A stretch of 64,000 nucleotides of DNA from Candidatus Anderseniibacteriota bacterium (GTDB lineage: Bacteria > Patescibacteriota > Andersenbacteria > UBA10190), in assembly GCA_021414205.1 (NCBI GenBank), contig JAIOOW010000003.1, forward strand, positions 48 to 64,047, given 5' to 3'. The stretch's first letter is position 1. The number at the start of each line of letters is the position of its first letter. This document shows, piece by piece, positions 21,839-61,574 of this stretch. The translations under genes were made by a program, and so were the position numbers. Under the pieces are notes generated by a model. It did no database searches. It was not told the origin of the DNA and saw only the letters and a program-made list of their open reading frames with translations.

Positions 21839-22780
21839 TTACGACGCCAAACCAATAACGAGCATTGTAACGATGGACCGAGGGTCCATCGTTTTATTAC
21901 TGTTCATGGATCGCTCTACGCCCGCAATACGAACCAAAGCATCTTGGATAACAGGCACAGAAAGCCTTCGCACTATTGGAGTCGCTTTCTGCACGGCAAT
22001 TGGATGAAACTTTGATTGCTTAGAAATAACGCTGGCGCTTTCGTTATTATCGATACCCATTCGTACTGCCAAAAACAATCTGAATTGATACGCAATCATC
22101 GATGTAATGAACCTCTCTGATGCACCGCCTGCAATCATTGACTGCAAAATATTCGTGGCAATAATGGGCTTCTTCGCCGTAATGGCTTCCAAGAGCGGAA
22201 AGGCACTAGGCACTGCGCTGCTGCGTTCCGGAACTATACTTTCAACATCATCTTTTGTTACCACCTCTTTATATGCTACCAATTTTTGCAGCTCTGATGC
22301 GAGCGCATACGTATCAAATCCAACCCTCTGCACCAGCGATATCATCGCATCCTGCTCTATAGCATCGTCTTTCATGCCCCCTTCTTTTATATAGTTCTGT
22401 ATCCACCGTACGCCCTGTTGAATATCACCAATTGCCGGAAACTGCTCAACCTCTGCATTCTTTTTGAGAAACTTATGCACAGCAGATCGAGCATCTGCGC
22501 CCCCTCGTTGCCAAAAGATACTATCACCCTTCATATTTTCAGGCGTGCAATATTCGATAATTTGAGTACGAACTGCTTCGGAATATGATAATGGATCCCG
22601 GAACACCAGAAGAGACACTCCAAATAGCGATCCTTTTGCGCTATCAAAGATAGCTTCAATAGGAGAATTCCTCATATCATCTTCATCCACAAAACGAACC
22701 TGCGCATGCGACTTATTCGCATACGCAGCTATCTTCGCTCGCGCCGTTCGTGTATCTTCCCCGAAGAAATATCGGATCAT
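21839..22780 (-). CDS. holA: DNA polymerase III delta subunit-like protein.
   Basis: Length of approximately 313 aa and an N-terminal FFGEDTRTARAKI pattern like the delta subunit. The genomic context also fits. Similarity is weak, so this is tentative. Confidence 0.45.
   Translation of the reverse strand: MIRYFFGEDTRTARAKIAAYANKSHAQVRFVDEDDMRNSPIEAIFDSAKGSLFGVSLLVFRDPLSYSEAVRTQIIEYCTPENMKGDSIFWQRGGADARSAVHKFLKKNAEVEQFPAIGDIQQGVRWIQNYIKEGGMKDDAIEQDAMISLVQRVGFDTYALASELQKLVAYKEVVTKDDVESIVPERSSAVPSAFPLLEAITAKKPIIATNILQSMIAGGASERFITSMIAYQFRLFLAVRMGIDNNESASVISKQSKFHPIAVQKATPIVRRLSVPVIQDALVRIAGVERSMNSNKTMDPRSIVTMLVIGLAS
21870..21898 (+). terminator. Intrinsic terminator for rpsT, embedded in the 3' coding region of the convergent holA-like gene.
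   Basis: Perfect 10-bp stem ACGATGGACC-gag-GGTCCATCGT followed by TTTATT. Confidence 0.5.
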
Positions 22781-22799
22781 GAATATACACTACACGCTC

Positions 22800-23933
22800 C
22801 TACTTTCCTGTCCAAGTCACTGAAATAGTCGGCTCAACCGCAGTTACCCATACCTGTCCGCGAGTAAACGTAATCGGTTTTCCTTGTGCGTCCAAGAAAT
22901 GCACAGGGTCTTTCTTATTATTAATATCTTTTGTCCACTTCCCCGTAATTGCTTTTCCGTCCTCGTATACCGTTAAGTCTCCAGTTCCTTCGATGGCAAC
23001 ATTGTTGTATCCGCCAGGTCCATCCATGTACGTATTCGTTGCGCGCATCACCGCAACTACACTTGGGGCAATCACTTTCTTGTCGTACCCATCGACCTGC
23101 TTTACTCCTGCCCAGTATCTTACATATCGATTCGTTGCAGAATCATATTCATAGCTCACCTTAAATGCGCCAGGCCAATTGATCGTAAGCGTTCCCCCTG
23201 TAGGCCGGTCGCTTGCAGGAGCATCGTCTTTAAAATCATACCCCTTGAACTGAGTCTCTGTTCTGTACCCGAGCTTTTGCAACGTATCCCACAATCGCGC
23301 ATATGTAGTAAACCCATTATACGGCGCAGGCAAGTTATCCTTTCTGAAGAAGGCATTATTCGGATTTTGCAGAGCATTCATTGTTTGGAATTGGCCTGCT
23401 GCAATCATATTAAGCGCCCAGTAGCTTCCTCCCCAGTGAGCCATGATTCCATCAATACCGTCGAGCAAGTACAAGTAATCGTGTCGAGCAGAACGCACTG
23501 ACCCCATTTCAGGAGCCTCTCCGCACTGATACACGGCAGTAAGTCGCGTAACATCGCTCACAAGCACCGGCAACTCAAACACCATGTCTGCCGTAGAAAA
23601 TCCTGAAAGCGGACGATTAATTGGATCTCCTGCAAGCATTACGCCAATCGGCCTTCGGTTAGGATGATCGCATGGCATTCCAGACAATCCGCTCGTATCT
23701 CGATTTACGGGCGCAGGCGTAGGAGATGCATTTTGTCCAAGCGGAAGATTGCCGTACATAGAAGTGCTCCCAGAACCTTTAGATTTGGAATGAAGCCCCG
23801 CATATGCGCCAACTGCAATAACAATAACGCCCACAACTACCGCGATTATAATTGGAAGCATCTGCTTCTTTTTAGAAGAGGGCGAATGCATCCCTGCTTC
23901 CGGATTAGAATGTTGAGGCTCTTCTTCAGACAT
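22800..23933 (-). CDS. TM-anchored secreted protein, DUF3048-like.
   Basis: N-terminal TM helix, a Ser/Gly linker and a conserved core (PCDHPNRRPIGVMLAGDPINRPLSGFSTADMVFELPV) resembling the YerB/DUF3048 family. Confidence 0.4.
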   Translation of the reverse strand: MSEEEPQHSNPEAGMHSPSSKKKQMLPIIIAVVVGVIVIAVGAYAGLHSKSKGSGSTSMYGNLPLGQNASPTPAPVNRDTSGLSGMPCDHPNRRPIGVMLAGDPINRPLSGFSTADMVFELPVLVSDVTRLTAVYQCGEAPEMGSVRSARHDYLYLLDGIDGIMAHWGGSYWALNMIAAGQFQTMNALQNPNNAFFRKDNLPAPYNGFTTYARLWDTLQKLGYRTETQFKGYDFKDDAPASDRPTGGTLTINWPGAFKVSYEYDSATNRYVRYWAGVKQVDGYDKKVIAPSVVAVMRATNTYMDGPGGYNNVAIEGTGDLTVYEDGKAITGKWTKDINNKKDPVHFLDAQGKPITFTRGQVWVTAVEPTISVTWTGK

Positions 23934-23981: not shown

Positions 23982-26468
23982 CTATCCAATATCAAAAAGG
24001 GACTCGCTCATGTATGAATCGTGTTCCACTTTATCGCTTTGTTGATTAGGTTTTACTCCTTCAAATCGAGATGTAATCTCTTGCTCAACATCAGCGCGAG
24101 ATCTGCCATAGAGCGTCCGCGAATTCTCTTTTATCTGCCCTGCGATATCAGGATCTCCAATTGCAGGAGGAAGCGGCACAGCAATACTGCATGCGCGCTC
24201 CGGCGTACTGTTCACAAGAGGTCGAACAACGGCAGTAAATCGTCTCAAGTTTACTAAATCATATTGCGTAAACACGGGTGCAAATTGTTTTTCCATAAAC
24301 TCCGCATCCTCAACGCCAATGCGATACGAAACAATCGTACCAACGTTTCCAAATACGGCATCTGCAATCGGCTCGTCAAGCTGATTAATAAACTGATGTG
24401 CCAAATTAAGATTCAAACGATACTTTCTTGCTTCCGACAATATCGTCGCGATGCTGTCGGTTGTAAAATTTTGAAACTCATCAAGGTACAAATAAAAATC
24501 ATTACGCTCGTTTTCCGGAATATCTGCGCGACCAAGAGCAGCTATTTGAATTTTAGATACCAGTACAAATCCCAATAAATCAGAATTCATATCGCCTAAT
24601 TCCCCTTTCGATAAATTGCAGAGCAGAATTTTCTTCTGATCCATAATCTCCCTCACATCAAATGATGATGTTGCCTGCCCGATAATATTCCTCACTGTGT
24701 CGTTACTAATAAATCTACCAAGCTTACTAATGATATAGCTGAGCATATCCGCAGACATTTGTCCGCGCTGGGACTGTGCAAATTCTTGGTTCCAAAACTG
24801 CAACACAACAGGGTTTGTAACTTTGCTCAATATTTGCTTCCTGAATGGCTCATCCACAAACATGCGAGGCACGTCGAGCAATGTTGCCTGCGGATCTTCA
24901 ACAAGCGCTAATAATGCATTCCTTAAATAATGCTCGAACATCGGCCCTATCGATTCCGGATTTAACCTTGCGGCAAGCTTTTGCAAAATTTGCACTACCT
25001 CATTTACAACTAAGTCCCTCTGCTCAGAATTCTTTGATTCTAAAATATTAAACCCGAGTGGGCGGTCTTTATCTCGCGGATCAAACAGCACAACATCCTT
25101 CAATCGATTCTGAGGAATGTGGTGTAGAATATCTGAAATTAAATCGCCGTGCGGATCTACAACGCCGACGCCATTCCCTGCCTGAATATCCTGAATAATC
25201 ATGTTTAAAAACATCGTCGTTTTTCCAGTTCCAGTTTGGCCCAATAGATACATATGGCGTCTCCTATCAGACTGGCTGATATGTACAGGCGTATCGATTC
25301 CCCGATACTGATTAACACCAATTAACACGCCATCTTGAGGAAGATTACTTGGCGCAGGCGCAGACTTAGCTCCTCTCCAAACTATATTAGGAGTAGATGT
25401 GGTAGGAAGAGGAAAGTGATACATACTAGATATTTCAGCAGTGCCAAACACCGATGCGGAGGATTCATCAGGAACTCGAAATACCATCTTCTCAATAAAC
25501 TTCTTCTTGTTTTTAGGTTCCTTAAACACAAGCTGATTTAAGTCGGGAAAATCATACTGAGAAAATGCTGATGCAAGGCCATGGAATACGCGCTCCGCAT
25601 CGTCCCGCTTTCGCACAGAAACGCCCACGCGAATATTTACAGAGAACTGCTGTTGTACCATTTTCGCTTCTACCAACTCAATACGTTGTTGCATCCGAGT
25701 TGTCATCTTGCCTGCTCGCTGCTCGTCCGTATCCCTATCCGACTTTGTTTTCGTTACTGCAGATAAAATTGAGGAAAAACCAAACGAGGAGCTCGAAAGG
25801 TCCGCTTGCTTCCCGAGCATCGTACGTTTTGTGGCTTGCGATGCCTGTATAGATGACGATCTCGATGCCGGCGTAAGAATGTACTGTATTAGTGCGGAAT
25901 CAGTGCTTTGCATTTTTGCCAATGCGCCCGTAAGCGGCTGCATCGGATCAACTTCCAACTCTTTATATGTTGCAATTGGCAAATATTCTTTCCGTCGTAA
26001 TCGGAAACTGGCCACACGAACAGCATCCCCTTCCGCAAAAATGGTAAATTCTGGAGCATCCTTAACTTCCGCTTCTGGATAATGCGCATAAATCTGCTTT
26101 TCCAAATGCTGAATATACTTCCGTTCTGTTCCTGCAAAAAACAAAATTCCTTGATCTGGGATACTGGCCATCTCAAACACCACGACTGGCTTACCATATA
26201 GAAACTGCTGTTTCCAGGATGATGGCAAAGATGAGAGCGTAGATAAAAACTGCTCTCCAACCGCGATACGCTCCTTGATTGACTGCCCAATACCTTCCTC
26301 CCTATCTTCCTTCTGCATATCTTTCGGCAACAGCACTTGGAGCATTTGAATATCTAGCGATCGAGACATTCGCGCACGTTCACGAAGAAGCAGCGCTATC
26401 GCAAAAAGTCCGGCGCAACAGAGGCCCAACATAATAACTAGTAACAAAAACCCGATAAAAGAAATCAT
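23982..26468 (-). CDS. TrwB/TraD/VirD4-like type IV coupling-protein-family ATPase with an approximately 400-aa N-terminal extension.
   Basis: N-terminal TM segment. Walker A YLLGQTGTGKTTMF followed by VVDPHGDL matches the TrwB_AAD_bind pattern (GxTGxGKS...VDPnGD). Walker B is LYLDEFQNF. The 370-aa region before the NTPase domain includes Ser-rich low complexity. Confidence 0.55.
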   Translation of the reverse strand: MISFIGFLLLVIMLGLCCAGLFAIALLLRERARMSRSLDIQMLQVLLPKDMQKEDREEGIGQSIKERIAVGEQFLSTLSSLPSSWKQQFLYGKPVVVFEMASIPDQGILFFAGTERKYIQHLEKQIYAHYPEAEVKDAPEFTIFAEGDAVRVASFRLRRKEYLPIATYKELEVDPMQPLTGALAKMQSTDSALIQYILTPASRSSSIQASQATKRTMLGKQADLSSSSFGFSSILSAVTKTKSDRDTDEQRAGKMTTRMQQRIELVEAKMVQQQFSVNIRVGVSVRKRDDAERVFHGLASAFSQYDFPDLNQLVFKEPKNKKKFIEKMVFRVPDESSASVFGTAEISSMYHFPLPTTSTPNIVWRGAKSAPAPSNLPQDGVLIGVNQYRGIDTPVHISQSDRRRHMYLLGQTGTGKTTMFLNMIIQDIQAGNGVGVVDPHGDLISDILHHIPQNRLKDVVLFDPRDKDRPLGFNILESKNSEQRDLVVNEVVQILQKLAARLNPESIGPMFEHYLRNALLALVEDPQATLLDVPRMFVDEPFRKQILSKVTNPVVLQFWNQEFAQSQRGQMSADMLSYIISKLGRFISNDTVRNIIGQATSSFDVREIMDQKKILLCNLSKGELGDMNSDLLGFVLVSKIQIAALGRADIPENERNDFYLYLDEFQNFTTDSIATILSEARKYRLNLNLAHQFINQLDEPIADAVFGNVGTIVSYRIGVEDAEFMEKQFAPVFTQYDLVNLRRFTAVVRPLVNSTPERACSIAVPLPPAIGDPDIAGQIKENSRTLYGRSRADVEQEITSRFEGVKPNQQSDKVEHDSYMSESLFDIG

Positions 26469-26947
26469 AGAGAATATACAAAAACTATGACCGCAACAAC
26501 AATAGCAGCAAACAATGCGAAAATGCCAAACAATACTTTAGGGGATACATAGTGCTCATTCACGCGATCAGCAATCACAGCGTCGTACAACCTTCCCGTC
26601 AATACGTCATGGAGCAAATCAATATTTCGTGGAAAATATTCGCTCGTTTTCGCTTTTGCAATCGCTACATCAAGCCCATCCGAAAACGCCGTTTCAACCA
26701 ACGCCTGAACTTCTTTATGCTCTTCAGGAGAATGTTCCCATGGCTCCCTGATAGGAGTAACGCCAACACCTTCGTGCTCAAATACTTGCACTAATTCCTC
26801 ACCCAACAATTCCTTATCGCGCTTTGTACCGGGTACTGCATGCTTTTCGACGCGTCGTTCGTACGACTCCTGAAATGAGCGTGCTTGTTCTGGATTGCGA
26901 AAAATCAACGACTCGCGCACCCCTCCCTTGCGAGATTCCAATGACAT
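26465..26947 (-). CDS. Hypothetical protein with a C-terminal TM anchor, translationally coupled to the downstream coupling-protein gene.
   Basis: 160 aa with a C-terminal hydrophobic helix (VLFGIFALFAAIVVAVIVFVYSL). The stop overlaps the next gene's start (ATGA). Confidence 0.4.
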   Translation of the reverse strand: MSLESRKGGVRESLIFRNPEQARSFQESYERRVEKHAVPGTKRDKELLGEELVQVFEHEGVGVTPIREPWEHSPEEHKEVQALVETAFSDGLDVAIAKAKTSEYFPRNIDLLHDVLTGRLYDAVIADRVNEHYVSPKVLFGIFALFAAIVVAVIVFVYSL

Positions 26948-26965: not shown

Positions 26966-29674
26966 TTAACCTACGCTCTGAATATCGCCCCAACTCGGTC
27001 CAATTCCAACGTCCACGACAAGAGGGGCGTCGAGCACAACTACGCCTTCCATAATACGCTTCATATCTTGAGCAAACAGCCCCGCATCTTCTTTTCTAAT
27101 TTCACACACAAGCTCGTCGTGAACAGTAAGGACAATGGCGCTTTGCACATACTGTTTTTTCATATGGTCATACAGCATAATCATTGCCTTCTTTATAATG
27201 TCCGCCTCAGCACCCTGGATTGGGAAATTAAATGCTGCACGCTCCGCACCTGCCCGAATGGCCGGGTTATTGGAATGAATTTCAGGAATATATCGCTTGC
27301 GCCCGAACATCGTCTCAACAAACCCATTTGCACGAGCACCCTCCACAATGTTCTCAATGCATTGCACAATACCTGTATATTGATGCTGATACCGATCAAT
27401 AAATGAGCGTGCCTCTTCAACACTCACTCCCGCAGAACGCGCAAAACTTTGTGCGCCCATCCCATACAGCACGCCGAAATTCAGGGTCTTAGCCTGTCTA
27501 CGCATATGATCAGTCACCTCTTTAACAGGGACGGAAAACACCCAGGCAGCAGTAGACTTATGAATATCCTCCCCCGCCTTAAATGCGGAAATCAATTTTT
27601 CATCTTGCGATACGTGCGCAGCAATTCGTAATTCAAGTTGCGAATAATCTGCCTTCACCAGCACAAATCCCTCGCGAGCAACAAATGCATTGCGAATTTC
27701 CTGCCCAACCTCAGTCCTAATTGGAATATTCTGCAGATTCGGGTTCGTAGACGAAAGCCTGCCAGTTGCCGCTATTGTCTGATTAAAAGAGGCATATATC
27801 CTATTCGTCTTGCTATCTACAAGAGGCGGTAGAGCATCTAAATACGTGCTTTTCAGCTTGGATAACTCTCGATATTCAGATAAGAACGCAATAATAGGGT
27901 GCTTTCCTGCCAATTTCTCCAATTCATCCGCACCAGTGGAGTATCCCGATTGTGTCTTCTTAATTCCAACAGTTGGAAGGTTCAAGTTCACAAATAATAT
28001 TTCTCGTAATTGCTTCGGGGACCCGATATTAAAATGCACACCAGCAAGTGACCATATTTGTTGTTCAATTATATCTATTCGCTCAGAAACTTTTTTACTC
28101 AGCATCGTAAAGATTTTTTTATCAATTGCCACCCCGGTCATTTCCATATGAACTAACACATCCAACAACGGGAGCTCAATTTCTTGCAGCACGTCCAGTA
28201 ATTTTTCTTCAATGATTTTCGGCAAGAAAAAATCATACAGTCGAAGCGATACATCAGCATCTTCAGCCGCATATCGAGCAAGCTCCATGAGCGGAACTTC
28301 TTTCATGCTTTTCTGATTTTTTCCGGAGCCGATTAAATCAGTGATCGGAATTGGCGTGTAGTTTAAAAATTCTTCAGCCAAGTCGTCCATGCCAAAATTT
28401 CGAGATCCCGGACGAAGCAAATAGCTCGCAATCATAGTATCAAAAACGACACCCTTCATATGAATACCCGACTGGGCCAATACCTCCATATCGTACTTTA
28501 AATTGTGGCCTGTTTTCTGAATTGCTGAATCTTCAAAAAAATCCTTCCAAAGTAAAACGGAGGTCGAATCAGTCGGCACATACCACGCCTGAATACCAGA
28601 CTCGGCGTGACAGGCGAAGCTCATCCCAATGATCGGACTCATCCTACCACCCAATCCATCCGTTTCTGTATCAAATGCGATAATCTTTTTGCTTTTTAAC
28701 ACTTTTTGCAAATCCAACTGCTCTTCTCTCAATTGAGCTATAAAATATCCGTCCGGCAGAACAATCTTTTCCTCATTTTTCATACCGAGCGTAGGCTGAA
28801 ATCCATCTTGACTTTTCGGAAGACGGCTAATTAAACTTCGAAATCCAAGCTTCTGAAACTCCGACCGAACTTTCTTTTCGTCATACGTAATAAATAGCGC
28901 ATCTTCCAATTCGACCTCTATAGGAACTTGCTGATGAATAATAGCCAATTTTCGAGAAAACAATGCGTCTTTTTCATGGCCCACAATATACTTTTTTGCC
29001 CGAGATGGGAGCTCTTCCTCGTGATCAAAAATAGACTCGAGCGGTCCAAAATTACCAACTAAATCCTTCGCAGTCTTAACACCAATCCCGACAACGCCTG
29101 GAATATTATCCGATGGGTCGCCAGCCAATCCCTTATAGTCAGGGATATATTTGGGCTCAAATCCGTACTTCTCTTTTACCAATTCTGGGGTGTATAAAAT
29201 CGTATCTGAGATACCTTTCTTGAGTGTAAATACTGATGTTTTTTCTGAAACTAATTGGAGCGTATCCATATCCCCAGTAACTACCACAACAGGAATTCTA
29301 TCTTCCAGCTTCCTCACAAGAGTCCCAATAATATCGTCTGCCTCAAACCCTTTTTTCTCCAATATGGGAATAGAAAATGCGCGGACCACATCGCGCACGA
29401 TATCGAACTGAACAATTAAATCGTCATCTAGCTCTTTTCTATGCGCCTTATAATCCGCATATTCTTCGTGTCGAAACGTGGGCCCCTTCATATCAAACGC
29501 AGCAATAACATGAGTAGGCTTCAACGTGCTGATCATTTTCATAAGCATTGTTGTAAACCCATACACCGCGTTTGTAGGAATACCATCCTCAGAAGTCATG
29601 GGCGGCAAGGCGTGATATGCCCTATGAATAAGGGCGTGCGCATCTATAATTGCCAGTTTTTGCCGTTTTGCCAT
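26966..29674 (-). CDS. polA: DNA polymerase I.
   Basis: 902 aa. N-terminal 5'-3' exonuclease (IIDAHALIHRAYHAL, GIGVKTA), a middle 3'-5' exonuclease-like domain, and C-terminal family-A polymerase motifs (DYSQLELRIAAH, KTLNFGVLYGMG, VHDELV). Confidence 0.95.
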   Translation of the reverse strand: MAKRQKLAIIDAHALIHRAYHALPPMTSEDGIPTNAVYGFTTMLMKMISTLKPTHVIAAFDMKGPTFRHEEYADYKAHRKELDDDLIVQFDIVRDVVRAFSIPILEKKGFEADDIIGTLVRKLEDRIPVVVVTGDMDTLQLVSEKTSVFTLKKGISDTILYTPELVKEKYGFEPKYIPDYKGLAGDPSDNIPGVVGIGVKTAKDLVGNFGPLESIFDHEEELPSRAKKYIVGHEKDALFSRKLAIIHQQVPIEVELEDALFITYDEKKVRSEFQKLGFRSLISRLPKSQDGFQPTLGMKNEEKIVLPDGYFIAQLREEQLDLQKVLKSKKIIAFDTETDGLGGRMSPIIGMSFACHAESGIQAWYVPTDSTSVLLWKDFFEDSAIQKTGHNLKYDMEVLAQSGIHMKGVVFDTMIASYLLRPGSRNFGMDDLAEEFLNYTPIPITDLIGSGKNQKSMKEVPLMELARYAAEDADVSLRLYDFFLPKIIEEKLLDVLQEIELPLLDVLVHMEMTGVAIDKKIFTMLSKKVSERIDIIEQQIWSLAGVHFNIGSPKQLREILFVNLNLPTVGIKKTQSGYSTGADELEKLAGKHPIIAFLSEYRELSKLKSTYLDALPPLVDSKTNRIYASFNQTIAATGRLSSTNPNLQNIPIRTEVGQEIRNAFVAREGFVLVKADYSQLELRIAAHVSQDEKLISAFKAGEDIHKSTAAWVFSVPVKEVTDHMRRQAKTLNFGVLYGMGAQSFARSAGVSVEEARSFIDRYQHQYTGIVQCIENIVEGARANGFVETMFGRKRYIPEIHSNNPAIRAGAERAAFNFPIQGAEADIIKKAMIMLYDHMKKQYVQSAIVLTVHDELVCEIRKEDAGLFAQDMKRIMEGVVVLDAPLVVDVGIGPSWGDIQSVG

Positions 29675-29678
29675 ATAT

Positions 29679-30134
29679 TTATTCTACTCTACTTACTACA
29701 ACAATTCGCCCGCTATTATCGATACTAGTAATGGAAATATTCCAATGCGGCTGCAAAATTTCGCTACCCAGCTTTTCCGGCCATTCAATAAGAACGACTG
29801 CTTTTTGATCTTCCGCAGTTCGCAGTATTTCATGAACATAATTAGTGTCCATTGATTCTCGGTATGCATCGATATGAATAAGCTTTTTAATTCCCCGAGA
29901 AATATCGGATATGTCGTACTCGGCCATGATTGTATACGTAGGAGAAGTTACAGGATCTAATATTCCCAAAGCCTGCGCAACGAACTGCACAAATGTCGTC
30001 TTGCCGGCGCCTAAATCGCCTTGTAAGCACACAATATCGCCTATGCGAAATTGCTCGGTAACGAGCGTAGCTAGCAACTCAAGCTCCTGCAGGCTGGATA
30101 TAGTATGGGTTCCAAGTAATTTTTTATCACTCAT
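29679..30134 (-). CDS. tsaE: tRNA threonylcarbamoyladenosine biosynthesis protein TsaE.
   Basis: 151 aa with a P-loop (GDLGAGKTTFVQ) and the YjeE/TsaE family pattern. Confidence 0.82.
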   Translation of the reverse strand: MSDKKLLGTHTISSLQELELLATLVTEQFRIGDIVCLQGDLGAGKTTFVQFVAQALGILDPVTSPTYTIMAEYDISDISRGIKKLIHIDAYRESMDTNYVHEILRTAEDQKAVVLIEWPEKLGSEILQPHWNISITSIDNSGRIVVVSRVE

Positions 30135-30231
30135 ACGACTATCCTATCTGAATTTTTTGAAAATACATATATTTTCCACATATGCACAGTTCCTTTTATT
30201 TATAAGCCGAGATACGATAATACGATTTCCT

Positions 30232-31383
30232 ATGAGTATCCCTGAAACCCAACAAGCGCTATCCGTGATTACACGAGCGAACAATATTGCATTGTTTGTA
30301 CCGGAGAAGCCTTCTATTGACGCTTTTTCATCCATGATGGCTCTATCCCTTGCGCTGTCTGCTCAAACTAAAAAGACTATATATAGCATTAGCCCTGTGC
30401 ATGTTCCAAATGAGCTACAGTTCTTACCAGGGTCGTCCCAAGTAGAAATGAAACCACGCCTACAACCAACCCTTGTTATAGATATTGCAGGAATTTCAAC
30501 TATCGCCAATATTGAACAAGTCTCAACGAAGGACGGCATAAAAATCCACCTGGAACTCCCCGCGAATACAGACATGAGCGCCGACATGGTTGAAACGCAC
30601 GTACGCCAACTTCCGTATGACTGTGCAATCTTGTTCGGTGCCTCGGACCTGGCTGATCTAGGGCCAATGTTTACAGATTTTGCAGACTTCTTCTACAACA
30701 TCCCAGTTATCAATATTGACCACAAACCCACGAATGAGTATTTCGGCACTATTAATATGGTTGATATTACGGCTTCTTCTATTGCAGAAATTACTCACGA
30801 GCTCATAACAGCCCTTTCCCCCGAAGCTGTCACCCAAGACGTCGCCACGGCATTATATGCGGGCATTGTTGGAGCAACAGAGTCATTCCAAAAACCTTCA
30901 ACTACGCCAAAGGCGTTTCAACTATCAGCAGAATTAATGACCAAGCAGGCGCAAACAGACGTTGTTATTCAGCATCTGGTGAAAACAAAGCCATTGTCAT
31001 TATTAAAGATTGCGGGACGCACATATGCTCGACTTCGACATGATGAGCACGGACATCTGTTCTGGAGTATTTTACGCGAACTGGATTTTCAGGAAAGTCA
31101 TGCAACAGAAGCTGATATCCCGCTTATTATGCACGAATTAACCAATAATATTTCCGGGTATAACGCGGCCTTCATCCTGCATGAAAATGAGAATAAAGAG
31201 CACGTGATATACATAACGCTTGGCAAAGGACTGGCAAAAAAACGACAAGAAATTCAAGAGCAACTTTCCGCAAAGAAACAAAACGGTATGCTAGTGGTCA
31301 CGCTTCCGCCGTCATCACTAGAAGATGCCGAGCTTTTAGCTGTACAAAAAATCAGGCAAATACTTCCGCAATTTCACTCCTGA
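30232..31383 (+). CDS. DHH/DHHA1-family NrnA-like phosphoesterase homolog with degenerate catalytic motifs.
   Basis: The architecture aligns to NrnA. Motif I reads PEKPSIDAFSS instead of H..PDGDA.GS, and motif III reads INIDHKP instead of IDHH. A DHHA1-like C-terminus is present. The start is taken at the internal ATG at 30232, because the ORF's 5' extension overlaps tsaE. Confidence 0.55.
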   Translation: MSIPETQQALSVITRANNIALFVPEKPSIDAFSSMMALSLALSAQTKKTIYSISPVHVPNELQFLPGSSQVEMKPRLQPTLVIDIAGISTIANIEQVSTKDGIKIHLELPANTDMSADMVETHVRQLPYDCAILFGASDLADLGPMFTDFADFFYNIPVINIDHKPTNEYFGTINMVDITASSIAEITHELITALSPEAVTQDVATALYAGIVGATESFQKPSTTPKAFQLSAELMTKQAQTDVVIQHLVKTKPLSLLKIAGRTYARLRHDEHGHLFWSILRELDFQESHATEADIPLIMHELTNNISGYNAAFILHENENKEHVIYITLGKGLAKKRQEIQEQLSAKKQNGMLVVTLPPSSLEDAELLAVQKIRQILPQFHS

Positions 31384-33056
31384 GATACGCGCTCCACTTC
31401 ATCGATAGTGGTTTTCTTATCAATTACTTTCAAATACGCATCCTGGGCAATAGTCGTCATCCCCGCTTGCAATGCAACTTTTTGAATATCGGCACTGCTC
31501 ACTCCCTCCAAAATTAACTTCTTCATTTCTTGATCTACGGCAAAAATTTCAAATGCGCCCAATCGACCGTGATACCCTGTATTGCCGCACACTTGGCATC
31601 CAACTGCCCGCATAAACCGCAACGCCGGATCATCAAGTACGACTGGATCAAAAATATCTTTTCGTATGTTCTTCATTGATTCCTTTACCTTATTTCTCAG
31701 CGCTACATCAGGATCATACTCCTGGGCGCACGAGGTGCACACCACGCGAACCAACCTCTGCGCAATAACAAGATTAAGAGCCGGAGCAAGCACATACGGC
31801 TTGATACCCATATCAATAAGGCGAGGAATAGCTCCTGCGGCATCATTTGTGTGGAGAGTAGAGAACACCAAGTGACCAGTAAGCGCTGCATGCACGGCTG
31901 TTTCTGCAGTTTCCACGTCACGCATTTCACCCACCATGATGACATCCGGATCTTGACGCAAAATACTGCGCAATCCCGCCGCGAACGTATACCCAGCGTC
32001 TGGATCCACCTGCGTTTGCTCAATACCCGGAATGCGATATTCAATAGGATCTTCTAATGTAATAATCTTCGACCCCGTAACGTTCACATCTCGCAAAAAC
32101 GAAGCCAGTGTTGTTGTTTTACCAGATCCGGTTGGTCCTGTGATCAATATCATGCCGTTTACCCTCTTAAGCTCTGCATTCACCACATCCAAGTCCCTGT
32201 TTTTCATACCAAGCTCTTTCATCGCAACTGCTTCAGCGTCTCTATTCAATAAACGAATTACAATGTTTTCCCCGTATCCGCCAGGCAACGTCGAAAGACG
32301 CATATCGTACGTTTCCTCTCCAATACGAAGCACGAAGCTTCCGTCTTGCGGCGCATCGTGGATATTCAGTTTTAATCTCGCCATTACTTTCACGCGAGAT
32401 AGCACAAGCGACCATCCGTCCCGCTCAAATTCAACGATATCCTGCAATACGCCGTCAATACGAAACCGGAGGCGCGCACTCTTTTCCTTTGGTTCTATGT
32501 GAATGTCCGACGCCCGCAACCTTACTGCGCTTATAGCAATTGCGGTGAGAATTTCAGTAGGAGGCATGGTAGTGATTCGCTTCCCCAGCTCTTCCAAGTT
32601 CTTTAATTCGGTCGCAAACGTATCTGCCTCTTTTTGGCCAATTTTTAATTCATCTTGCGGAACATCCTCGAGAGCGGCGTCTCTTCGGTATCGAGCAATA
32701 CCGGCAAGCAAGCTTCGCTTTGAAATAACATACATGTGCGGATCATATCCAAGATCTTCCTTTATTTTCGCAACCAAACTAATCGTTGCAGGAGCAGTGG
32801 GGTTAACTGCCCCAATGCGAATATCCCCTCCCTGTTTATAAAATAGCAACGCCTCAGCAGTCATCGCATCCTGTTTTGACACTCTCTCCAAAACATCGGA
32901 ATCAATAGGAAATACTACGAGATTAATATACGGAATCCCCAATTGCTCAGAACGGTGCTGCGCCAATCGCTCCTCTTGCCCCTGAGAAAACGTGACGAGT
33001 TTTGCGCCCAACTCTTTGTGGCGCTCAGATTCAGATACTGCCGGATCAAATACCAT
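31374..33056 (-). CDS. pilB: Type II/IV secretion-system ATPase, PilB/GspE family (type IV pilus assembly ATPase).
   Basis: Walker A LITGPTGSGKTTTL, Asp/His boxes and a tetracysteine C-terminus (CTSC...CQVCGNTG). The N-terminal domain is GspE_N-like. Confidence 0.85.
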   Translation of the reverse strand: MVFDPAVSESERHKELGAKLVTFSQGQEERLAQHRSEQLGIPYINLVVFPIDSDVLERVSKQDAMTAEALLFYKQGGDIRIGAVNPTAPATISLVAKIKEDLGYDPHMYVISKRSLLAGIARYRRDAALEDVPQDELKIGQKEADTFATELKNLEELGKRITTMPPTEILTAIAISAVRLRASDIHIEPKEKSARLRFRIDGVLQDIVEFERDGWSLVLSRVKVMARLKLNIHDAPQDGSFVLRIGEETYDMRLSTLPGGYGENIVIRLLNRDAEAVAMKELGMKNRDLDVVNAELKRVNGMILITGPTGSGKTTTLASFLRDVNVTGSKIITLEDPIEYRIPGIEQTQVDPDAGYTFAAGLRSILRQDPDVIMVGEMRDVETAETAVHAALTGHLVFSTLHTNDAAGAIPRLIDMGIKPYVLAPALNLVIAQRLVRVVCTSCAQEYDPDVALRNKVKESMKNIRKDIFDPVVLDDPALRFMRAVGCQVCGNTGYHGRLGAFEIFAVDQEMKKLILEGVSSADIQKVALQAGMTTIAQDAYLKVIDKKTTIDEVERVSQE

Positions 33057-33080
33057 GCAGGTAAGTATATAACACTTTAT

Positions 33081-34130
33081 TTATGCAAGATACGAGGAAA
33101 ATATTTTTCTCATCTCGGCATCATCATGAACCAGCACAGGACGAGGGACGCTATCACTCGCTTCTTGTTTTGCTTCAAGGAGACGAACAACATTATCTTG
33201 GATCAATTCATATGCGTGCCTATCGTCAATAAAATCCACCCAACTCTGCCCCTCAACAAGAGATATTGGCGCTCTCCCGGAATTTGCAATAACGGTATCC
33301 ACAGGTCTGCCGATATAGGATTCATATACCCGCACGAAATCTTCCCCTGACCAACCCACTGTATGCAGCGGAGTCGTAAGAAGCGTCATCACAACGCAAA
33401 TCTCCGCCTTACTATCGCGAAGCGCGGAAGAGCCTCCTATCGCAAGCGATGCTAACGTAGGCAAAATGGATCCAAACGTATGGCCAGGAGCAATAATAAT
33501 ATGCGTCGCATTATCAAGCGCTTTCTTTGCCCGAGGATTCAGCTCAGCATTTTTTTCAGCAAACGTAACCTTGATATCCCCAGGTTTCCAAGTTGGATCT
33601 GCCTGTGCATCCACATTCCAGGATATAAAATGCTGCCCACTTCCTAATAACTTTTCCTGACCATCTTTTTGCAATACCACCTGTTGAGTTAACGCTTCGA
33701 GTGTTGTTGGAATAACTCCGGCAAATTTTGGAACCTGCAATACTCGAGCAAATGTTGCGATTGCCGCGTCAAGATCACTCGTAAGCTCAAGCGCAGTTAA
33801 TAGAACGTTTCGAAGCGTATGCCCAGAAAAGTCACCATTTGCGAATCTGTATTCAAGAGCTTTTAAAAACTTATCCCCACGAACATCACCGCGAAGAGAG
33901 CTGAGAGCGAGCAAACATTTCGTAACATCCCCCATAGCGCCAACATCGTATTGTTCACGGAGCCTCCCCGTCGAACCACCGTCATCCGCCATATGAATAA
34001 GCGCGTGGAGCGATGCTATCGATCCATGTTCTAACAATGGAAGAAGTGCTGTAAGCAGTCGAGAAGTGCCGTTTCCCCCGCCCAACACAACGACTCGCTT
34101 TCCCTTTTTATTACTCAGAGCAAATGCCAT
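33081..34130 (-). CDS. YvcK/CofD-like (UPF0052, gluconeogenesis factor) family protein.
   Basis: N-terminal RVVVLGGGNGTSRLLTAL is the YvcK/CofD signature. Confidence 0.78.
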   Translation of the reverse strand: MAFALSNKKGKRVVVLGGGNGTSRLLTALLPLLEHGSIASLHALIHMADDGGSTGRLREQYDVGAMGDVTKCLLALSSLRGDVRGDKFLKALEYRFANGDFSGHTLRNVLLTALELTSDLDAAIATFARVLQVPKFAGVIPTTLEALTQQVVLQKDGQEKLLGSGQHFISWNVDAQADPTWKPGDIKVTFAEKNAELNPRAKKALDNATHIIIAPGHTFGSILPTLASLAIGGSSALRDSKAEICVVMTLLTTPLHTVGWSGEDFVRVYESYIGRPVDTVIANSGRAPISLVEGQSWVDFIDDRHAYELIQDNVVRLLEAKQEASDSVPRPVLVHDDAEMRKIFSSYLA

Positions 34131-34133
34131 AGA

Positions 34134-35843: not shown

Positions 35844-36834
35844 CAGTCACTTCTCGCCCCCTTGGCGTACGCACAAGAAATCCGCATTGTACTAAAAATG
35901 GCTCTATAACGTCCTCAATAGTCCGCTCTTCTTCTGAACACACCATTGCCAGCGTCTGCAAACCAACGGGACCGCCATTAAATTTTTCAATAATTGTAGA
36001 TAACACCATTTGGTCAGACATATCCAATCCCATTTCATCGATATGCAAAAGTTCGAGTGTCTGAGCGACTACGTCACTTGTTACAACTCCGTGCCCGCCA
36101 ACCTGCGCAACATCCCGAACGCGTTTTAATAGCCTGTTCCCAATACGAGGAGTCCTTCTGCATCTGCGAGCAATCTCAAACAGAGCATCTTCCTCTATCT
36201 TTAACCCCAGCAATTGTGCGGAACGAGCCAAAATCACCTTCATTTCATCAACATCATAAAAATCCAAGCGATACGTCATACCAAATCGATCGCGAAGCGG
36301 AGCCCCTAGCATCCCAACCCGCGTAGTAGCTCCTACGAGCGTAAATTGAGGCAAGTCGATACGAAGCGTTTTTGCGCCCGGCCCTTGCCCAACAACCAAG
36401 TCAAGCGCGAAGCTTTCCATTGCCGGATACAAAACTTCCTCTATAGAGCGGTTCAATCGATGAATTTCATCAATAAACAACACATCACCCTCTTGAAGAT
36501 TCGTTAAAATAGCGGCGAGATCTGCCACTTTCGTAAGAACAGGGCCTGCTGTTATGCGAATACTTGCAGAAAGCTCTCGGGCGATAATCATCGCAATACT
36601 CGTCTTGCCTAGTCCCGGAGGGCCTGCTAATAATACATGCTCTAACGCCTCGCCTCGCTGCTTCGCCGCTTGCAAAAAGACCTGCAAGCTCTTCTTCAAA
36701 TGCTCCTGTCCGGTAAAGTCGCTTAACATCTTTGGGCGAAGCGTTGCATCCAAGTTTTCATCCTCAGGAATACTGACTGCCGTTACAACGCTGGTCTGTG
36801 CCTCTTCAATAGCCATACATCCTAGTGTACCCAT
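35815..36834 (-). CDS. ruvB: Holliday junction branch-migration helicase RuvB.
   Basis: LRPKMLSDFTGQEHLKKSL, Walker A LLAGPPGLGKTSIA, DEIHRL, a sensor and a winged-helix C-terminus are textbook RuvB. Confidence 0.9.
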   Translation of the reverse strand: MGTLGCMAIEEAQTSVVTAVSIPEDENLDATLRPKMLSDFTGQEHLKKSLQVFLQAAKQRGEALEHVLLAGPPGLGKTSIAMIIARELSASIRITAGPVLTKVADLAAILTNLQEGDVLFIDEIHRLNRSIEEVLYPAMESFALDLVVGQGPGAKTLRIDLPQFTLVGATTRVGMLGAPLRDRFGMTYRLDFYDVDEMKVILARSAQLLGLKIEEDALFEIARRCRRTPRIGNRLLKRVRDVAQVGGHGVVTSDVVAQTLELLHIDEMGLDMSDQMVLSTIIEKFNGGPVGLQTLAMVCSEEERTIEDVIEPFLVQCGFLVRTPRGREVTDAGRAHMAR

Positions 36835-40122: not shown

Positions 40123-40127
40123 GCGCT

Positions 40128-46339: not shown

Positions 46340-46342
46340 ACA

Positions 46343-49358: not shown

Positions 49359-49360
49359 TT

Positions 49361-59049: not shown

Positions 59050-60876
59050 TTACGCATTAGCGCTCAACTCTTTCTTTGCAGCCTCAATGGCAAGGATTTG
59101 TTGCGGATCGGATGTAATAATCTGGTCTTCTGCATAGCTTGCCACAACTTTGATTGCCACGTGCTTGAGCCCCGCAAAGAAAATACCCTCTCCTACGTCG
59201 CTTTCCAGTAACCTGAACTTTTCGTGGTCCGTTAAGTAGAATACTTCAGATAGAGTATCGATTGCTGCCGGAGATTGTCGCAACAAGAGCTGAATAGATG
59301 AATTCGTCACAATCGGCTTGCCGTACTTTGATGCCAAGAAGTCGGAAATGTCTTGCGTAATCGTTGTTACTCCCAAATAGTACTTGCGGGCGCGTTTTGC
59401 CATAGAGAATAAGAATTTCGCAGATTCTTCGTTGCGCATCATGATCCAGGCTTCGTCTACGACGAGGATTCGTCGCTTTAATTGGCTTCGAACACGGTTC
59501 CAAATGAATCCGAGTACTACATACATGGCAATCGGCCGCAATTCTTCTTCCATGTCTCGGATATTAAATACGATGCACGCTTGATCAAGGTCGATATTGG
59601 TTGCTCGGTTAAATACTCCTGCAAATGTACCTTCTACGAAGCGCTGTAAGCGCACCGCAACGTTCTTTCCACCTTCCATTTCTTTCGTAATGTTGTAAAA
59701 ATCTTGCAGAGTTGGTACTTCTGGATTTTTCCAACGCGCACCGCGTGTAATATCTTTTAATGCATACGTTTCCCAAAGACCAGAGTCAACGATGGATTGC
59801 TCCTCTGCAGAAAGTCCATCGACCATCAAGGAAATTAGACCGATTAAGCGCGTAATATTTTCTCGTAAGGCAGATTCCGGATTTTCGTCTTCAGCTAATT
59901 CCGGTAAATCGAACGGATTGATGCGATGATCGGATGCGATAGCGATTTGCAGATACGCTCCCCCTACGGCTTCCGCGAGGTATCTGTATTCTTGCTCAGG
60001 GTCGATGACGATAACTTCGGTACCAAACATCATACTTCTTAATATTTCCAGTTTTACGGTATAGCTTTTCCCGGCACCGGATTTTGCGAAGATGACCATA
60101 TTGGCATTTTCTAGGCTAAACCTGTCGAACAATACCAAGCTGCTGTTATGCAGGTTGATTCCGTACAGCACTCCCGTATTGCTTGTAAGGTCCGAGCTTA
60201 CGAACGGGAAGCTGGTAGAGAGCGGCGACGTGTTCATGTTCGTATTTACGGCCAAGTTATCGTGTCCGAGCGGTAATGTAGAGGTAAACGCCTGCTCCAT
60301 TTGGAATAGCGCCGGCTTTGCGTAGATAAGGCGCCCTTCGAGCAATACCTCAACTTGAGAGAGGATGTCATCCAATTCTTCCTCCGTATTTGCATACACC
60401 GTAATATAGAGGCCGTACTGATAAAAGCGCTCTGTCCCCTGCACTAAGCGGTCTCGGAGCTCTTCAATGTCTTGGTATGCTGTTTCGAGCTGCGGATCGC
60501 GTACCTTTCCTTGCTCCTGCTGCATCGTAATAGATGTAGATACTTGAGTAATGCGCTTTCTAAGCTCTTTTAAGATGGTTGCAGAGTCTTGCGGATAAAT
60601 AAACATTGCAACGTCGAATTCCACGTCAAAATTTACGATAGAGGCAAACCAATTCGTATCTAGGTATCGCGGATAGGTTGTTACGTAGATTGTTGTGGCA
60701 AATTTGCCGTCTATTTCCAACGACTTTGTCTTCACTTTGAATCCTGATGGGGCTATCAGGTCGCGAAGCGATGATACTCCTTTCTCGAATTGATCCATAA
60801 CGGCCTTATCTTCTTTGCTGATCGGGGCAGTTGGTGTACCCGTCTTTTTTTGTGGGAATAGAGAGGGGAATTTCAT
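59050..60876 (-). CDS. VirB4/TrbE/CagE-family type IV secretion ATPase.
   Basis: An N-terminal VirB4-type domain (KSLEIDGKFATTIYVTTYPRYLDTNWFASIV), Walker A IFAKSGAGKSYTVK and Walker B ILVVDEAWIMM (the DEAW motif typical of VirB4/TraC). Confidence 0.75.
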   Translation of the reverse strand: MKFPSLFPQKKTGTPTAPISKEDKAVMDQFEKGVSSLRDLIAPSGFKVKTKSLEIDGKFATTIYVTTYPRYLDTNWFASIVNFDVEFDVAMFIYPQDSATILKELRKRITQVSTSITMQQEQGKVRDPQLETAYQDIEELRDRLVQGTERFYQYGLYITVYANTEEELDDILSQVEVLLEGRLIYAKPALFQMEQAFTSTLPLGHDNLAVNTNMNTSPLSTSFPFVSSDLTSNTGVLYGINLHNSSLVLFDRFSLENANMVIFAKSGAGKSYTVKLEILRSMMFGTEVIVIDPEQEYRYLAEAVGGAYLQIAIASDHRINPFDLPELAEDENPESALRENITRLIGLISLMVDGLSAEEQSIVDSGLWETYALKDITRGARWKNPEVPTLQDFYNITKEMEGGKNVAVRLQRFVEGTFAGVFNRATNIDLDQACIVFNIRDMEEELRPIAMYVVLGFIWNRVRSQLKRRILVVDEAWIMMRNEESAKFLFSMAKRARKYYLGVTTITQDISDFLASKYGKPIVTNSSIQLLLRQSPAAIDTLSEVFYLTDHEKFRLLESDVGEGIFFAGLKHVAIKVVASYAEDQIITSDPQQILAIEAAKKELSANA

Positions 60877-61574
60877 AGAGCGGGTTCCGTTTCTTCTACT
60901 TTTAAATCAGTCACATTGCGCAATTTCTGATTTCGCGATGTTGTTGGGTTGAAGTAGTTGTAAAATAACTCAATTAATTCCTGCGTTTTAAGCGGCACCA
61001 CGCGCAAGCCAATTCCTCGAAGGCCGATTGCGATCTGCTCTACTCGGTGGAGAATCTGTGTCTTATTGTGCTCAAACTCAACGTCGTTCATTTTGAGATT
61101 CCCAGTTGCGCCCTTGGCCCCTTTCGTAATTCTGCCGAATGTCCCCTCTTTCTTGCTCTGGGATACGGAGAATGGAATGGTTACAAAGAACGTTTTGGTC
61201 ATGATATTACTTCCTTTTACGAGTTCTCCGATGAAGTTGATATATTCGGTCATCTGTAAATGCAGTAACTCGTTTTTTTGCAGATCCCTAAGGCGTTTTA
61301 CTTCTTCTAAATAGGCCGTAATATCCATTTTTCGAGAAGAAACGGTGAGCTGGATGGAGAAGTCCAATGAATTAATAAATTCCTGATATGCGTAGATGAT
61401 AGCGTTCTGTTCTTCCTCTGATTTTAATGCGAAATTTACGGAAGAGATCATGAGCACGCTTCGCATTGTTCCGTCGTTCAAAATTAAAATTCCATCTCGA
61501 ATCTCCGAAATTTTAATGAGCGATTGGCTTGCACGCCCTTTGCTCGAAGGATTAAGCATGTCGAAGATTGCCAT
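60873..61574 (-). CDS. Hypothetical T4SS-associated protein.
   Basis: A 233-aa soluble protein whose stop overlaps the VirB4-like start (ATGA). No recognisable motif. Confidence 0.4.
   Translation of the reverse strand: MAIFDMLNPSSKGRASQSLIKISEIRDGILILNDGTMRSVLMISSVNFALKSEEEQNAIIYAYQEFINSLDFSIQLTVSSRKMDITAYLEEVKRLRDLQKNELLHLQMTEYINFIGELVKGSNIMTKTFFVTIPFSVSQSKKEGTFGRITKGAKGATGNLKMNDVEFEHNKTQILHRVEQIAIGLRGIGLRVVPLKTQELIELFYNYFNPTTSRNQKLRNVTDLKVEETEPAL

Follow-up and report, generated by a model that had tools for sequence, protein, structure and literature searches.

A long VirD4/TrwB-type ATPase and its small upstream partner in Andersenbacteria, a candidate coupling module for Patescibacteria's chromosomal type IV secretion system

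Which machine is served by a long coupling-type ATPase that is encoded together with a small upstream protein, far from the VirB4 gene of the same genome? This question is raised by a contig of Candidatus Anderseniibacteriota (JAIOOW010000003.1), of which a stretch of 64,000 nucleotides (nt)—hereafter the window—was analyzed. The gene pair lies on the minus strand and consists of an open reading frame (ORF) of 828 amino acids (aa) at 23982..26468, a long type 1 homologue of type IV coupling proteins (T4CPs) by ORF call and family placement, and an ORF of 160 aa at 26465..26947, whose stop overlaps the ATPase start. Patescibacteria account for much of bacterial diversity and rely on host cells, and the chromosomal type IV secretion system (T4SS) they possess is essential in the sole genetically tractable species. 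The favored answer, held with about even confidence, is that the pair is the coupling motor of this T4SS—substrate receptor and translocation ATPase in one—with the N-terminal domain of the large protein docking it and the small protein acting as adaptor or regulator. The window gene itself is an ordinary, already annotated family member within the known "T4CP homologues far from virB4". In the literature searched, no description was found of the VirB4-like N-domain, of a long T4CP subfamily that also includes proteins of Gram-positive plasmids and phage G, of the two paralogues, of a small partner kept in position, or of the probable correspondence of the window's type to an essential gene pair of Southlakia.

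The junction DNA of the pair reads ...TCT CTA TGA, with ATG ATT TCT beginning inside, a true ATGA overlap of both ORFs. Together with the ORF table, it bears out the gene sizes and the overlap given in an earlier, sequence-only reading of the window. The 828-aa protein features a membrane anchor (aa 1–35; 26364..26468), a DUF8128 domain (aa 36–378; 25335..26363), a T4CP nucleotide-binding domain with an inserted all-alpha domain (aa 379–770; 24159..25334), as delimited by Pfam, NCBIfam, and Foldseek, and a C-terminal tail (aa 771–828; 23985..24158), all on the minus strand. The anchor comprises a hydrophobic helix at aa 2–28—the transmembrane segment that the sequence-only reading had placed in the N-terminal half—followed by the residues RERAR, and is modeled as one long helix (H2-38). 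Classical T4CPs usually carry two transmembrane helices; the anchor here is one hydrophobic helix. The tail features two helices and then a disordered acidic end, with a predicted local distance difference test (pLDDT) score <50 at aa 806–828.

The nucleotide-binding signature is confined to the C-terminal half, as had been claimed: the Walker A motif GQTGTGKTT (aa 410–418; 25215-25241), the motif VVDPHGDL (aa 436–443), and the Walker B motif LYLDEFQNF (aa 660–668; 24465-24491) fall within aa 410–668, and Pfam and NCBIfam matches are found only at aa ~377–746. K416 of Walker A, D663 and E664 of Walker B, and the residues Q692 and Q696 are invariant across 54 homologues of 32–85% identity. The Pfam family TrwB_AAD_bind (PF10412) matches aa 397–699 with 32.0 bits at a gathering cut-off of 20.5, TraG-D_C reaches 21.5 bits at aa 658–725 (cut-off 22), and the top NCBIfam match is the VirD4-like conju_CD1115 (aa 389–721, 49.3 bits). 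A sequence search of the PDB with a profile of the 54 homologues returned TrwB at an E-value of 8e-8 and DotL at 7e-6, followed by HerA at 0.01–0.03; neither FtsK nor VirB4 appeared at E ≤ 10, and no FtsK family is matched in Pfam or NCBIfam at E ≤ 0.1. Since neither FtsK nor HerA is the better match, the C-terminal half is, by sequence family, a VirD4/TrwB-type coupling ATPase. The call of a coupling-protein-like ATPase is upheld, and the check with hidden Markov models for a better FtsK or HerA match returned none.

In total, 1,371 homologues were found. The top 120 measure ~815–847 aa and bear PF26449 together with PF10412, and PF10412 and PF02534 stand in the precomputed annotation of most close homologues. 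The full-length AlphaFold2 model (pLDDT 86.2) features the long N-terminal helix, an alpha/beta domain, and the ATPase, in which helices at aa 481–610 (~24639-25028, minus strand) form an all-alpha insertion between Walker A and Walker B; this mark of T4CPs is seen here in predicted structure. Foldseek aligns the model to TrwB, DotL, and Cagbeta with target-normalized template modeling (TM) scores of 0.5 to 0.64, those to TrwB (TrwB-deltaN70) being 0.57 to 0.64 over ~430–450 columns. Being encoded with a relaxase and/or in a T4SS cluster, a further mark of T4CPs, is found for plasmid homologues and not for the window gene.

The N-terminal half had been described as a 400-aa stretch without obvious homology, a description that is refuted. 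In precomputed annotation, PF26449 (DUF8128) is listed for P0001, a protein identical to the window's, and for the 120 best homologues without exception, and an exhaustive search with aa 1–390 yielded 1,195 clusters at 50% identity, most of them of ~780–860 aa with the domain at the N terminus. Membership in DUF8128 is taken from this annotation and from an N-domain profile made in this work; no mention of DUF8128 (PF26449) was found in the literature searched. The domain alone (aa 36–378) was modeled confidently, with a pLDDT of 86.5 and a predicted TM score of 0.84. The Ser-rich and coiled-coil-like regions of the sequence-only reading exist as a stretch at aa ~205–262 (25683-25856), but this is only a variable, low-confidence loop inside the folded domain. 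In a Foldseek search of the PDB with the domain-only model, the top 14 matches are all TrwK/VirB4 (E 5e-7 to 9e-5, query-normalized TM scores 0.42–0.48), and the next fold follows at E ≥ 1e-3. Among the viral structures of BFVD, the domain matches phage G gp156 (query-normalized TM score 0.69), the "VirB-like" phage G gp155 (0.50), and a protein named "Component of type IV transporter system" (0.45). The DUF8128 domain is a conserved folded alpha/beta domain and is predicted to resemble the N-terminal domain of VirB4, which in R388 comprises residues 15–400 and around which VirB3 wraps (PMC9259494). A fold likeness taken from a prediction is no proof of homology with VirB4.

Homologues that include the N-domain were also found outside Patescibacteria by tblastn against plasmids and phages. 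On the Embleya sp. plasmid NZ_CP108778, the homologue WP_331738717.1 (812 aa) stands in the order PrgI, VirB4-like ATPase, homologue, replication-relaxation protein, NlpC/P60 hydrolase. The Niallia sp. plasmid NZ_CP137637 features the order homologue (WP_338473401.1, 867 aa), replication-relaxation protein, TcpE, VirB4-like ATPase. With the N-domain profile, the Embleya and Niallia proteins reach 67 and 102 bits, respectively, and with the A1 family profile 368 and 276 bits. In Bacillus phage G, gp156 (825 aa, PHROG 5156) is encoded directly after gp155 (VirB-like), and phrog_5156 matches the window protein with 276 bits over aa 88–813. Full-length homologues, N-domain included, sit in plasmid conjugation clusters, so the long architecture marks out a subfamily of T4CPs that belongs to monoderm conjugation systems. 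The supposed orphan extension is instead the defining domain of this subfamily, present also in Gram-positive plasmids and phage G. The occurrence of long T4CPs in monoderm conjugation clusters agrees with the reported nesting of Patescibacteria VirB4 within the monoderm MPF-FATA class (PMC12102498).

In the 160-aa partner, an N-terminal half that is variable and charged precedes a conserved helical core and a C-terminal transmembrane tail. The core (aa 79–124; 26576..26713, minus strand) follows the pattern ..V..LV..AF..G...A...A.. and then ..LD..HD.L...LY. In 28 sequences of its family, termed A, D110 and D114 are invariant, and H113, L116, L83, and A99 nearly so. Family A comprises 182 clusters, all of them hypothetical proteins without Pfam domain, and the small protein matches no Pfam, NCBIfam, PADLOC, or PHROG family. 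In a reciprocal check, three of three further family A members were located directly upstream of a gene of ~820–837 aa, two of these genes bearing a precomputed DUF8128 annotation. A hydropathy scan places a hydrophobic tail-anchor at aa 138–160 (26468..26536, minus strand), in line with the C-tail anchoring of the sequence-only reading. The tail is present only in the window and in the Andersenbacteria loci L001-L003 and absent from the other family A members examined, and the designation "anchor protein" therefore holds for the lineage but not for the module.

A same-strand ORF of 90–260 aa ending ≤200 nt from the T4CP start occurs in 60 of the 71 loci with enough upstream sequence; 10 of these ORFs overlap the T4CP start, and 30 more leave a gap of ≤20 nt. 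With a stricter gene set, a small same-strand ORF stands just upstream of the T4CP gene in 52 of 71 cases and of 87 of the 278 other genes of ≥300 aa at these loci (Fisher p 2.5e-10); phylogenetically, the loci are not independent of one another. The proteins in this position belong to several unrelated sequence families—A, the ABY1-like B, the Microgenomatia-like C/D, and a Saccharibacteria-like form—and no homology to family A is detectable for B, C/D, or the Saccharibacteria-like form. A single family for A and B had been considered on one 13.8-bit single-linkage phmmer edge; the merger was withdrawn because hhalign gave a probability of 0.1%.

The long T4CPs of Patescibacteria occur in two forms, and in three loci (L014, L057, and L065) two DUF8128 T4CP genes stand next to each other. 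Identity is 50–63% within type 1, 51–57% within type 2, and 34–38% between the types; the window protein is 38–40% identical to type 1 (544–603 bits) and 34–35% to type 2 (448–460 bits). A neighbor-joining distance tree of 772 columns, bootstrapped 100 times and with the plasmid and phage proteins as its root, recovers type 2 as monophyletic in 100/100 replicates; the window protein groups with type 2 in 0/100, and all other Patescibacteria sequences form one clade in 76/100. Sequence comparison, hence, suggests two old paralogues—to which the widespread "orphan T4CP" genes would belong—with the window protein as type 1. Type 2 proteins measure ~860–1,073 aa and carry a long low-complexity C terminus (L057:12470-16551, L065:11077-15453, L014:3587-6163).

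In L057 and L065, the gene upstream of type 2 encodes a protein of 346 aa in which Sigma70_r4 and HARE-HTH domains are found. This is the layout of SEML1_0294 of Southlakia, upstream of SEML1_0293 (PF10412 at aa 402–719; Wang et al. Table S2, PMC10633639), which was scored NE/NE/NE by transposon sequencing (Tn-seq; PMC10633639). SEML1_0293 is presumably the "non-essential t4cp" cited by Quinonero-Coronel et al., and the non-essential t4cp of the literature is probably type 2. In the same Tn-seq data, SEML1_0142 was scored ES/ES/ES (PMC10633639 Table S1), and the hypothetical gene SEML1_0141 (420 nt, 139 aa), which lies upstream at a distance of 12 nt, was scored GD/ES/ES and had no insertions at T0-T2 (PMC10633639). 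The T4SS genes SEML1_0006-0019 are mostly essential (PMC10633639 Table S1), and the Southlakia T4SS was described as being without recognizable coupling and relaxase proteins (Wang et al., PMC10633639). Contig L090 features YifB, further on a 145-aa gene, a 1,045-aa DUF8128 protein starting 11 nt later, two reverse-strand genes, and gyrB, which is the Southlakia neighborhood, and the 1,045-aa protein falls into the type 1 clade. Because L090 reproduces this neighborhood with a type 1 protein, the window pair is probably the Andersenbacteria counterpart of SEML1_0141/0142, as judged by the synteny of L090 and the distance tree. The window's type is, hence, suggested to include a Southlakia gene scored essential in Tn-seq, together with its small unannotated upstream partner.

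A one-genome-per-species scan of Patescibacteria gave at least 600 matches, from which 80 loci were kept. Many candidate phyla are represented, Uhr-, Magasanik-, Staskawicz-, Woese-, Levy-, Berkel-, and Doudnabacteria among them, and the gene orders of the loci are class-specific. Andersenbacteria feature tsaE-polA-...-small-T4CP-DUF3048-holA; ABY1-like loci small-T4CP-(methyltransferase)-unknown gene of ~200–280 aa-dnaX; Microgenomatia-like loci ribonucleotide reductase (RNR)...small-T4CP...XerC/D-like; and Saccharibacteria-like contigs the pair adjoining gyrB (and gyrA). In related Andersenbacteria, the block order is kept at 61–66% protein identity, except that one or two further genes separate polA from the small gene. 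The window locus is a vertically inherited chromosomal two-gene module of Patescibacteria.

At the window itself, the pair is part of a six-gene block, tsaE-polA-small-T4CP-DUF3048-holA, on a single (minus) strand with small gaps. The gene polA (26966..29674) ends 18 nt upstream of the small gene and is preceded on its side of the block by tsaE (29679-30134); on the other side follow a DUF3048 gene (22800..23933) and holA (21839..22780; TIGR01128 with 119 bits, cut-off 80). The pair had been described as wedged between polA and holA; this holds for polA, but the intervening DUF3048 gene means that the pair does not lie directly against holA. Its integration with replication and repair genes, proposed on the strength of this adjacency, is not supported: linkage of the pair to polA, holA, and DUF3048 is found in Andersenbacteria loci only, was rejected as a general feature, and, being limited to one lineage, is by itself no indicator of function. 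A consensus scan detected no more promoter- or terminator-like sites in the block than in shuffled sequence, which is consistent with co-transcription but is no evidence for it.

As for the candidate partner machine, the pair lies far from the VirB4 cluster, as had been stated. The VirB4-like gene at 59050..60876 is 32.6 kilobases (kb) away. VirB4 is encoded by two ORFs with a 4-nt overlap on the minus strand (59050..61574), outside the coordinates of the pair: a TrsD-like N-terminal piece of 233 aa (60873-61574) with a weak TraC_F_IV match and a piece of 608 aa (59050-60876) that matches P-loop_TraG with 88 bits, AAA_10, and CagE_TrbE_VirB. In the vicinity are a weak VirB6/TrbL-like gene (62778-63986, weak TrbL match) and unannotated small genes at 58049-59046 and 62046-62768. 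The cluster lies ~10 kb from dnaA (47674-49092), and a VirB4 cluster near dnaA has been reported for Patescibacteria (PMC12102498).

Building on the observed sequence family, catalytic residues, gene-pair conservation, paralogue assignment, and plasmid T4CP homology and on the predicted folds, the favored mechanism can be outlined as follows. The large protein would form a membrane-anchored ATPase ring as TrwB does. For the chromosomal VirB4/VirB6 T4SS encoded 32 kb away, which lacks a relaxase, this ring would both receive the substrate and drive its translocation, and its VirB4-like N-domain would dock it on the inner-membrane platform. In R388, VirB3 and the tails of VirB8 bind the VirB4 N-domain. 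The small, fast-evolving protein, tail-anchored in this lineage, may be a bound adaptor or regulator comparable to CagZ for Cagbeta. CagZ binds and regulates Cagbeta. Presumably, protein or nucleic acid would be the substrate, moved without a relaxase to pilot it. For a coupling role speak the T4CP identity, the homologues in plasmid conjugation, the likeness to the VirB4 N-terminal domain in two independent structure libraries, and the VirB4/VirB6-like cluster in the window, as well as the type 1 assignment, the link to an essential gene pair, and the small upstream gene conserved in position and spacing.

Several points weigh against a coupling role. The conju_CD1115 score lies far below the equivalog cut-off of 250, which makes the window protein a relative and not a member of that family. 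Among the window proteins scanned, which covered part of the ORFs, no relaxase was detected, and Southlakia has none either. Searched as a profile against the PDB, the N-domain gave nothing but spurious matches to designed repeat proteins, and hhalign of the N-domain against the TrsD-like ORF of the window gave a probability of 0.15%; with no link at the sequence level to VirB4 or TrsD, the likeness to the VirB4 N-terminal domain is one of predicted structure, at the query-normalized TM scores of 0.42–0.48 to VirB4 chains in the PDB. A VirB4 match within ±8 kb of the T4CP gene occurs in 1 of 82 loci, and, in a published survey, 5,713 VirD4-type homologues were counted in 2,918 of 3,035 Patescibacteria genomes, 148 of them near virB4 (PMC12102498). 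VirB4 was found in 2,417 of the 3,035 (PMC12102498), and from the two shares—96% versus 80% of genomes—some genomes may keep a T4CP without a T4SS, an inference weakened by the incompleteness of metagenome-assembled genomes (MAGs) and the pooling of both paralogues. Neighbors from DNA replication and topology, in place of T4SS genes, recur in several independent arrangements (polA/holA, dnaX, gyrB/gyrA, and XerC/D-like), counted without a statistical test. Lastly, the orthology to SEML1_0142 derives from synteny and a distance tree and not from the Southlakia sequence, and essentiality fits T4SS coupling and a housekeeping role alike.

A bolder extension is offered tentatively and is rather doubtful as a whole: the type 1 DUF8128 protein and its small partner would be the essential module with the coupling ATPase that has been missing from the Patescibacteria T4SS, the combination of VirB4-like N-domain and VirD4-like ATPase would be a surviving VirB4/VirD4 intermediate, and the module would serve relaxase-independent transport of protein or host nucleic acid at the epibiont–host interface. 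Apart from this extension, the predicted VirB4-like fold of the N-domain suggests in concrete terms how docking might work, and that VirB4 and VirD4 are linked in evolution.

Of the alternatives, the one that survives best is a T4SS-independent housekeeping translocase, which is unlikely nonetheless. In this scenario, ring and partner would import or handle DNA or RNA, alone or with another channel, for example in nucleotide scavenging or linked to replication. The near-universal presence of VirD4-type genes in excess of VirB4, their almost complete lack of linkage to virB4, the absence of a relaxase, and the essentiality of the probable Southlakia orthologue would all be accounted for, as would the class-specific syntenies with DNA genes, RNR included; in addition, a 2026 preprint argues that Patescibacteria feed on host RNA. 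However, these DNA genes differ from class to class, and the closest relatives outside Patescibacteria are bona fide conjugation coupling proteins beside VirB4. ComEC-dependent DNA uptake, moreover, is dispensable in Southlakia (PMC12857230), and no channel partner is evident beside the T4CP gene.

An improbable second alternative is a VirB4-like assembly or energizing ATPase—that is, a second VirB4-type inner-membrane subunit in place of a substrate receptor. In the Foldseek search of the PDB with the full-length model, the best match is full-length TrwK/VirB4 (~900 columns, E 2e-15), ahead of HerA, TrwB, DotL, and Cagbeta, and VirB4 is the sole PDB match of the N-domain on its own. The order of a small gene before that of a large ATPase also recalls virB3-virB4, and R388 VirB4 acts as central and outside pairs (PMC9259494). 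The sequence profiles, however, place the ATPase with VirD4/TrwB: VirB4 models score 14–17 bits on the large protein (TIGR00929 14.7, cut-off 643), Pfam gives no CagE_TrbE_VirB, AAA_10, or P-loop_TraG match, and, in addition to the absence of VirB4 from the PDB profile search, hhalign against the window's own VirB4 reaches 25% probability, over the ATPase alone. The plasmid homologue beside a separate VirB4 and next to a putative relaxase likewise occupies the position of a T4CP.

A chromosome-segregation motor of the FtsK/HerA kind or a HerA-type defense ATPase is very improbable and largely refuted by the family comparisons. The ATPase superfamily is shared, as is apparent from DUF87 (23.0 bits, cut-off 23.2, Walker A region only), from PADLOC mad8, a component of the MADS defense system (40 bits, aa 402–746), and from PADLOC HerA (18–21 bits, ATPase only), and a XerC/D-like gene is nearby in Microgenomatia-like loci. 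Yet the FtsK_SpoIIIE architecture with alpha and gamma domains and a region of four transmembrane helices is absent from the window protein, HerA ranks below TrwB and DotL (HerA_C 12.3 bits, cut-off 22), and the mad8 match is a superfamily-level similarity only, without defense context: no defense island is present, the neighbors are housekeeping genes, and synteny is conserved. The idea of an FtsK substitute was dropped, as Southlakia encodes a complete, essential FtsK, SEML1_0096 (PMC10633639 Table S1), and TM7x an annotated one. Hardly credible, lastly, is the coupling protein of an integrated conjugative or mobilizable element moving DNA between cells: the Gram-positive plasmid homologues are conjugation coupling proteins, and relaxases are found in a minority of Patescibacteria, with 39 of these relaxases located close to a t4cp, but no relaxase, integrase, or repeats lie beside the pair, its GC content is like that of the flanks, and the tight same-strand block recurs in related Andersenbacteria, with class-specific synteny throughout.

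Several features of the other loci were recorded alongside. The C-terminal tail varies in length among homologues, and type 1 relatives on Saccharibacteria-like contigs reach 1,045–1,116 aa. DUF8128 proteins of 1,267–2,006 aa (P0191, P0202, P0215, P0233, and P0267) carry C-terminal extensions of 500–1,200 aa, and no Pfam domain is found in the long extensions of the 1,045–2,006-aa relatives. At L009:324-2921, N-domain (397 aa) and ATPase (457 aa) are separate adjacent ORFs, either a natural split gene or the product of a frameshift or assembly error. Just downstream of type 1 T4CP genes, often before dnaX, an unannotated family of ~170–300 aa ("unk281") occurs in 22 loci (for example L004:6819-7664, L012:10472-11077, and L065:10490-11053) with the core EGVFDGxxMxGxDGKxYxVPxNYASKSKLVEGDxLKLTI...WAAVENxI. 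It has no Pfam match, and neither this family nor the small-protein families B-D have homologues elsewhere in the window. In Moran-like and other Parcubacteria, the pair is preceded on the same strand by an E/K-rich protein of ~1,000–1,136 aa and a DUF5663 protein of ~100 aa (L084:893-4600, L085:2660-5993, and L086:421-4146); the E/K-rich proteins have no Pfam match, and neither protein features a transmembrane, channel-like region. Some contigs (L005, L010, L011, L015, L020, L023, L076, and others) are titled Methylomirabilota, Gammaproteobacteria, Bdellovibrionales, or Bathyarchaeia despite a typical Patescibacteria gene order and are probably mislabeled or mis-binned MAGs.

In the window, the minus strand carries recF, dnaN, and dnaA, and the plus strand yidC (45275-50668; recF-dnaN-dnaA 45275..49092). 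Since the GC skew switches sign near 48 kb, where these genes are found, the replication origin is probably located there. This putative origin has the VirB4 cluster at ~10 kb on one side and, on the opposite side, the T4CP pair at ~21 kb. A 490-aa ORF at 29911-31383 on the plus strand overlaps tsaE on the opposite strand; its true start is probably ~100 codons downstream, because its orthologues are DHH-family proteins of ~380 aa. Other envelope-related genes in the vicinity (31374-36834 and 38584-41441) encode a PilB/T2SSE ATPase (31374-33056), a CofD-like protein (33081-34130), a protein with three lamin-tail domains (34134-35843), and a 7TM-transglutaminase-associated protein followed by a sugar-transfer ATP-grasp protein (38584-41441). 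Scans of the window for tRNA and Rfam families were empty.

The coupling proteins TrwB of R388, VirD4, DotL, and Cagbeta share with the window protein the Walker A/B domain with its all-alpha insertion and a membrane anchor. In these classical T4CPs, a short N-terminal transmembrane domain leads straight into the ATPase, whereas in the window protein a domain of ~340 aa resembling the VirB4 N-terminal domain is placed in between. Identity to them is only 13–17%, and linkage to a relaxase or T4SS is missing.

VirB4 (TrwK of R388; PDB 7o42, 7o43, and 8rtd) shares the layout of an alpha/beta N-domain of ~350–400 aa followed by a RecA-like ATPase at the C terminus. By structure it is the best match over the full length, and a small gene stands immediately upstream, like virB3 before virB4. 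It differs in that the N-domains have no similarity of sequence profiles and that the window ATPase is nearer VirD4 by every profile; moreover, the window genome encodes a separate VirB4 of its own. The CagZ–Cagbeta pair of Helicobacter pylori (PDB 8dol) is proposed as an analogy for a small protein that binds and regulates a coupling ATPase, and Cagbeta is among the structural matches of the large protein.

The long proteins of monoderm plasmids and phage G resemble the window protein in size and domain order, DUF8128 included. The plasmid homologues sit in T4SS clusters with a VirB4-like ATPase and a replication-relaxation (putative relaxase) gene, and gp156 of the jumbo phage G beside the VirB-like gp155, whereas the window gene stands on a chromosome, without a relaxase and 32 kb away from VirB4. 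The plasmid homologues, in turn, have no small upstream partner gene, and the Niallia protein has no obvious transmembrane helix at its start.

The Southlakia protein SEML1_0142 is ~190–220 aa longer at its C terminus than the window protein and adjoins gyrB in place of polA/holA, and the small partner of the Saccharibacteria-like and Southlakia type belongs to another sequence family without a match to families A-D. SEML1_0141/0142 nevertheless repeat the arrangement of the window: a small gene lies just upstream of a long TraM-recognition/P-loop protein, in which the ATPase begins at ~aa 381.

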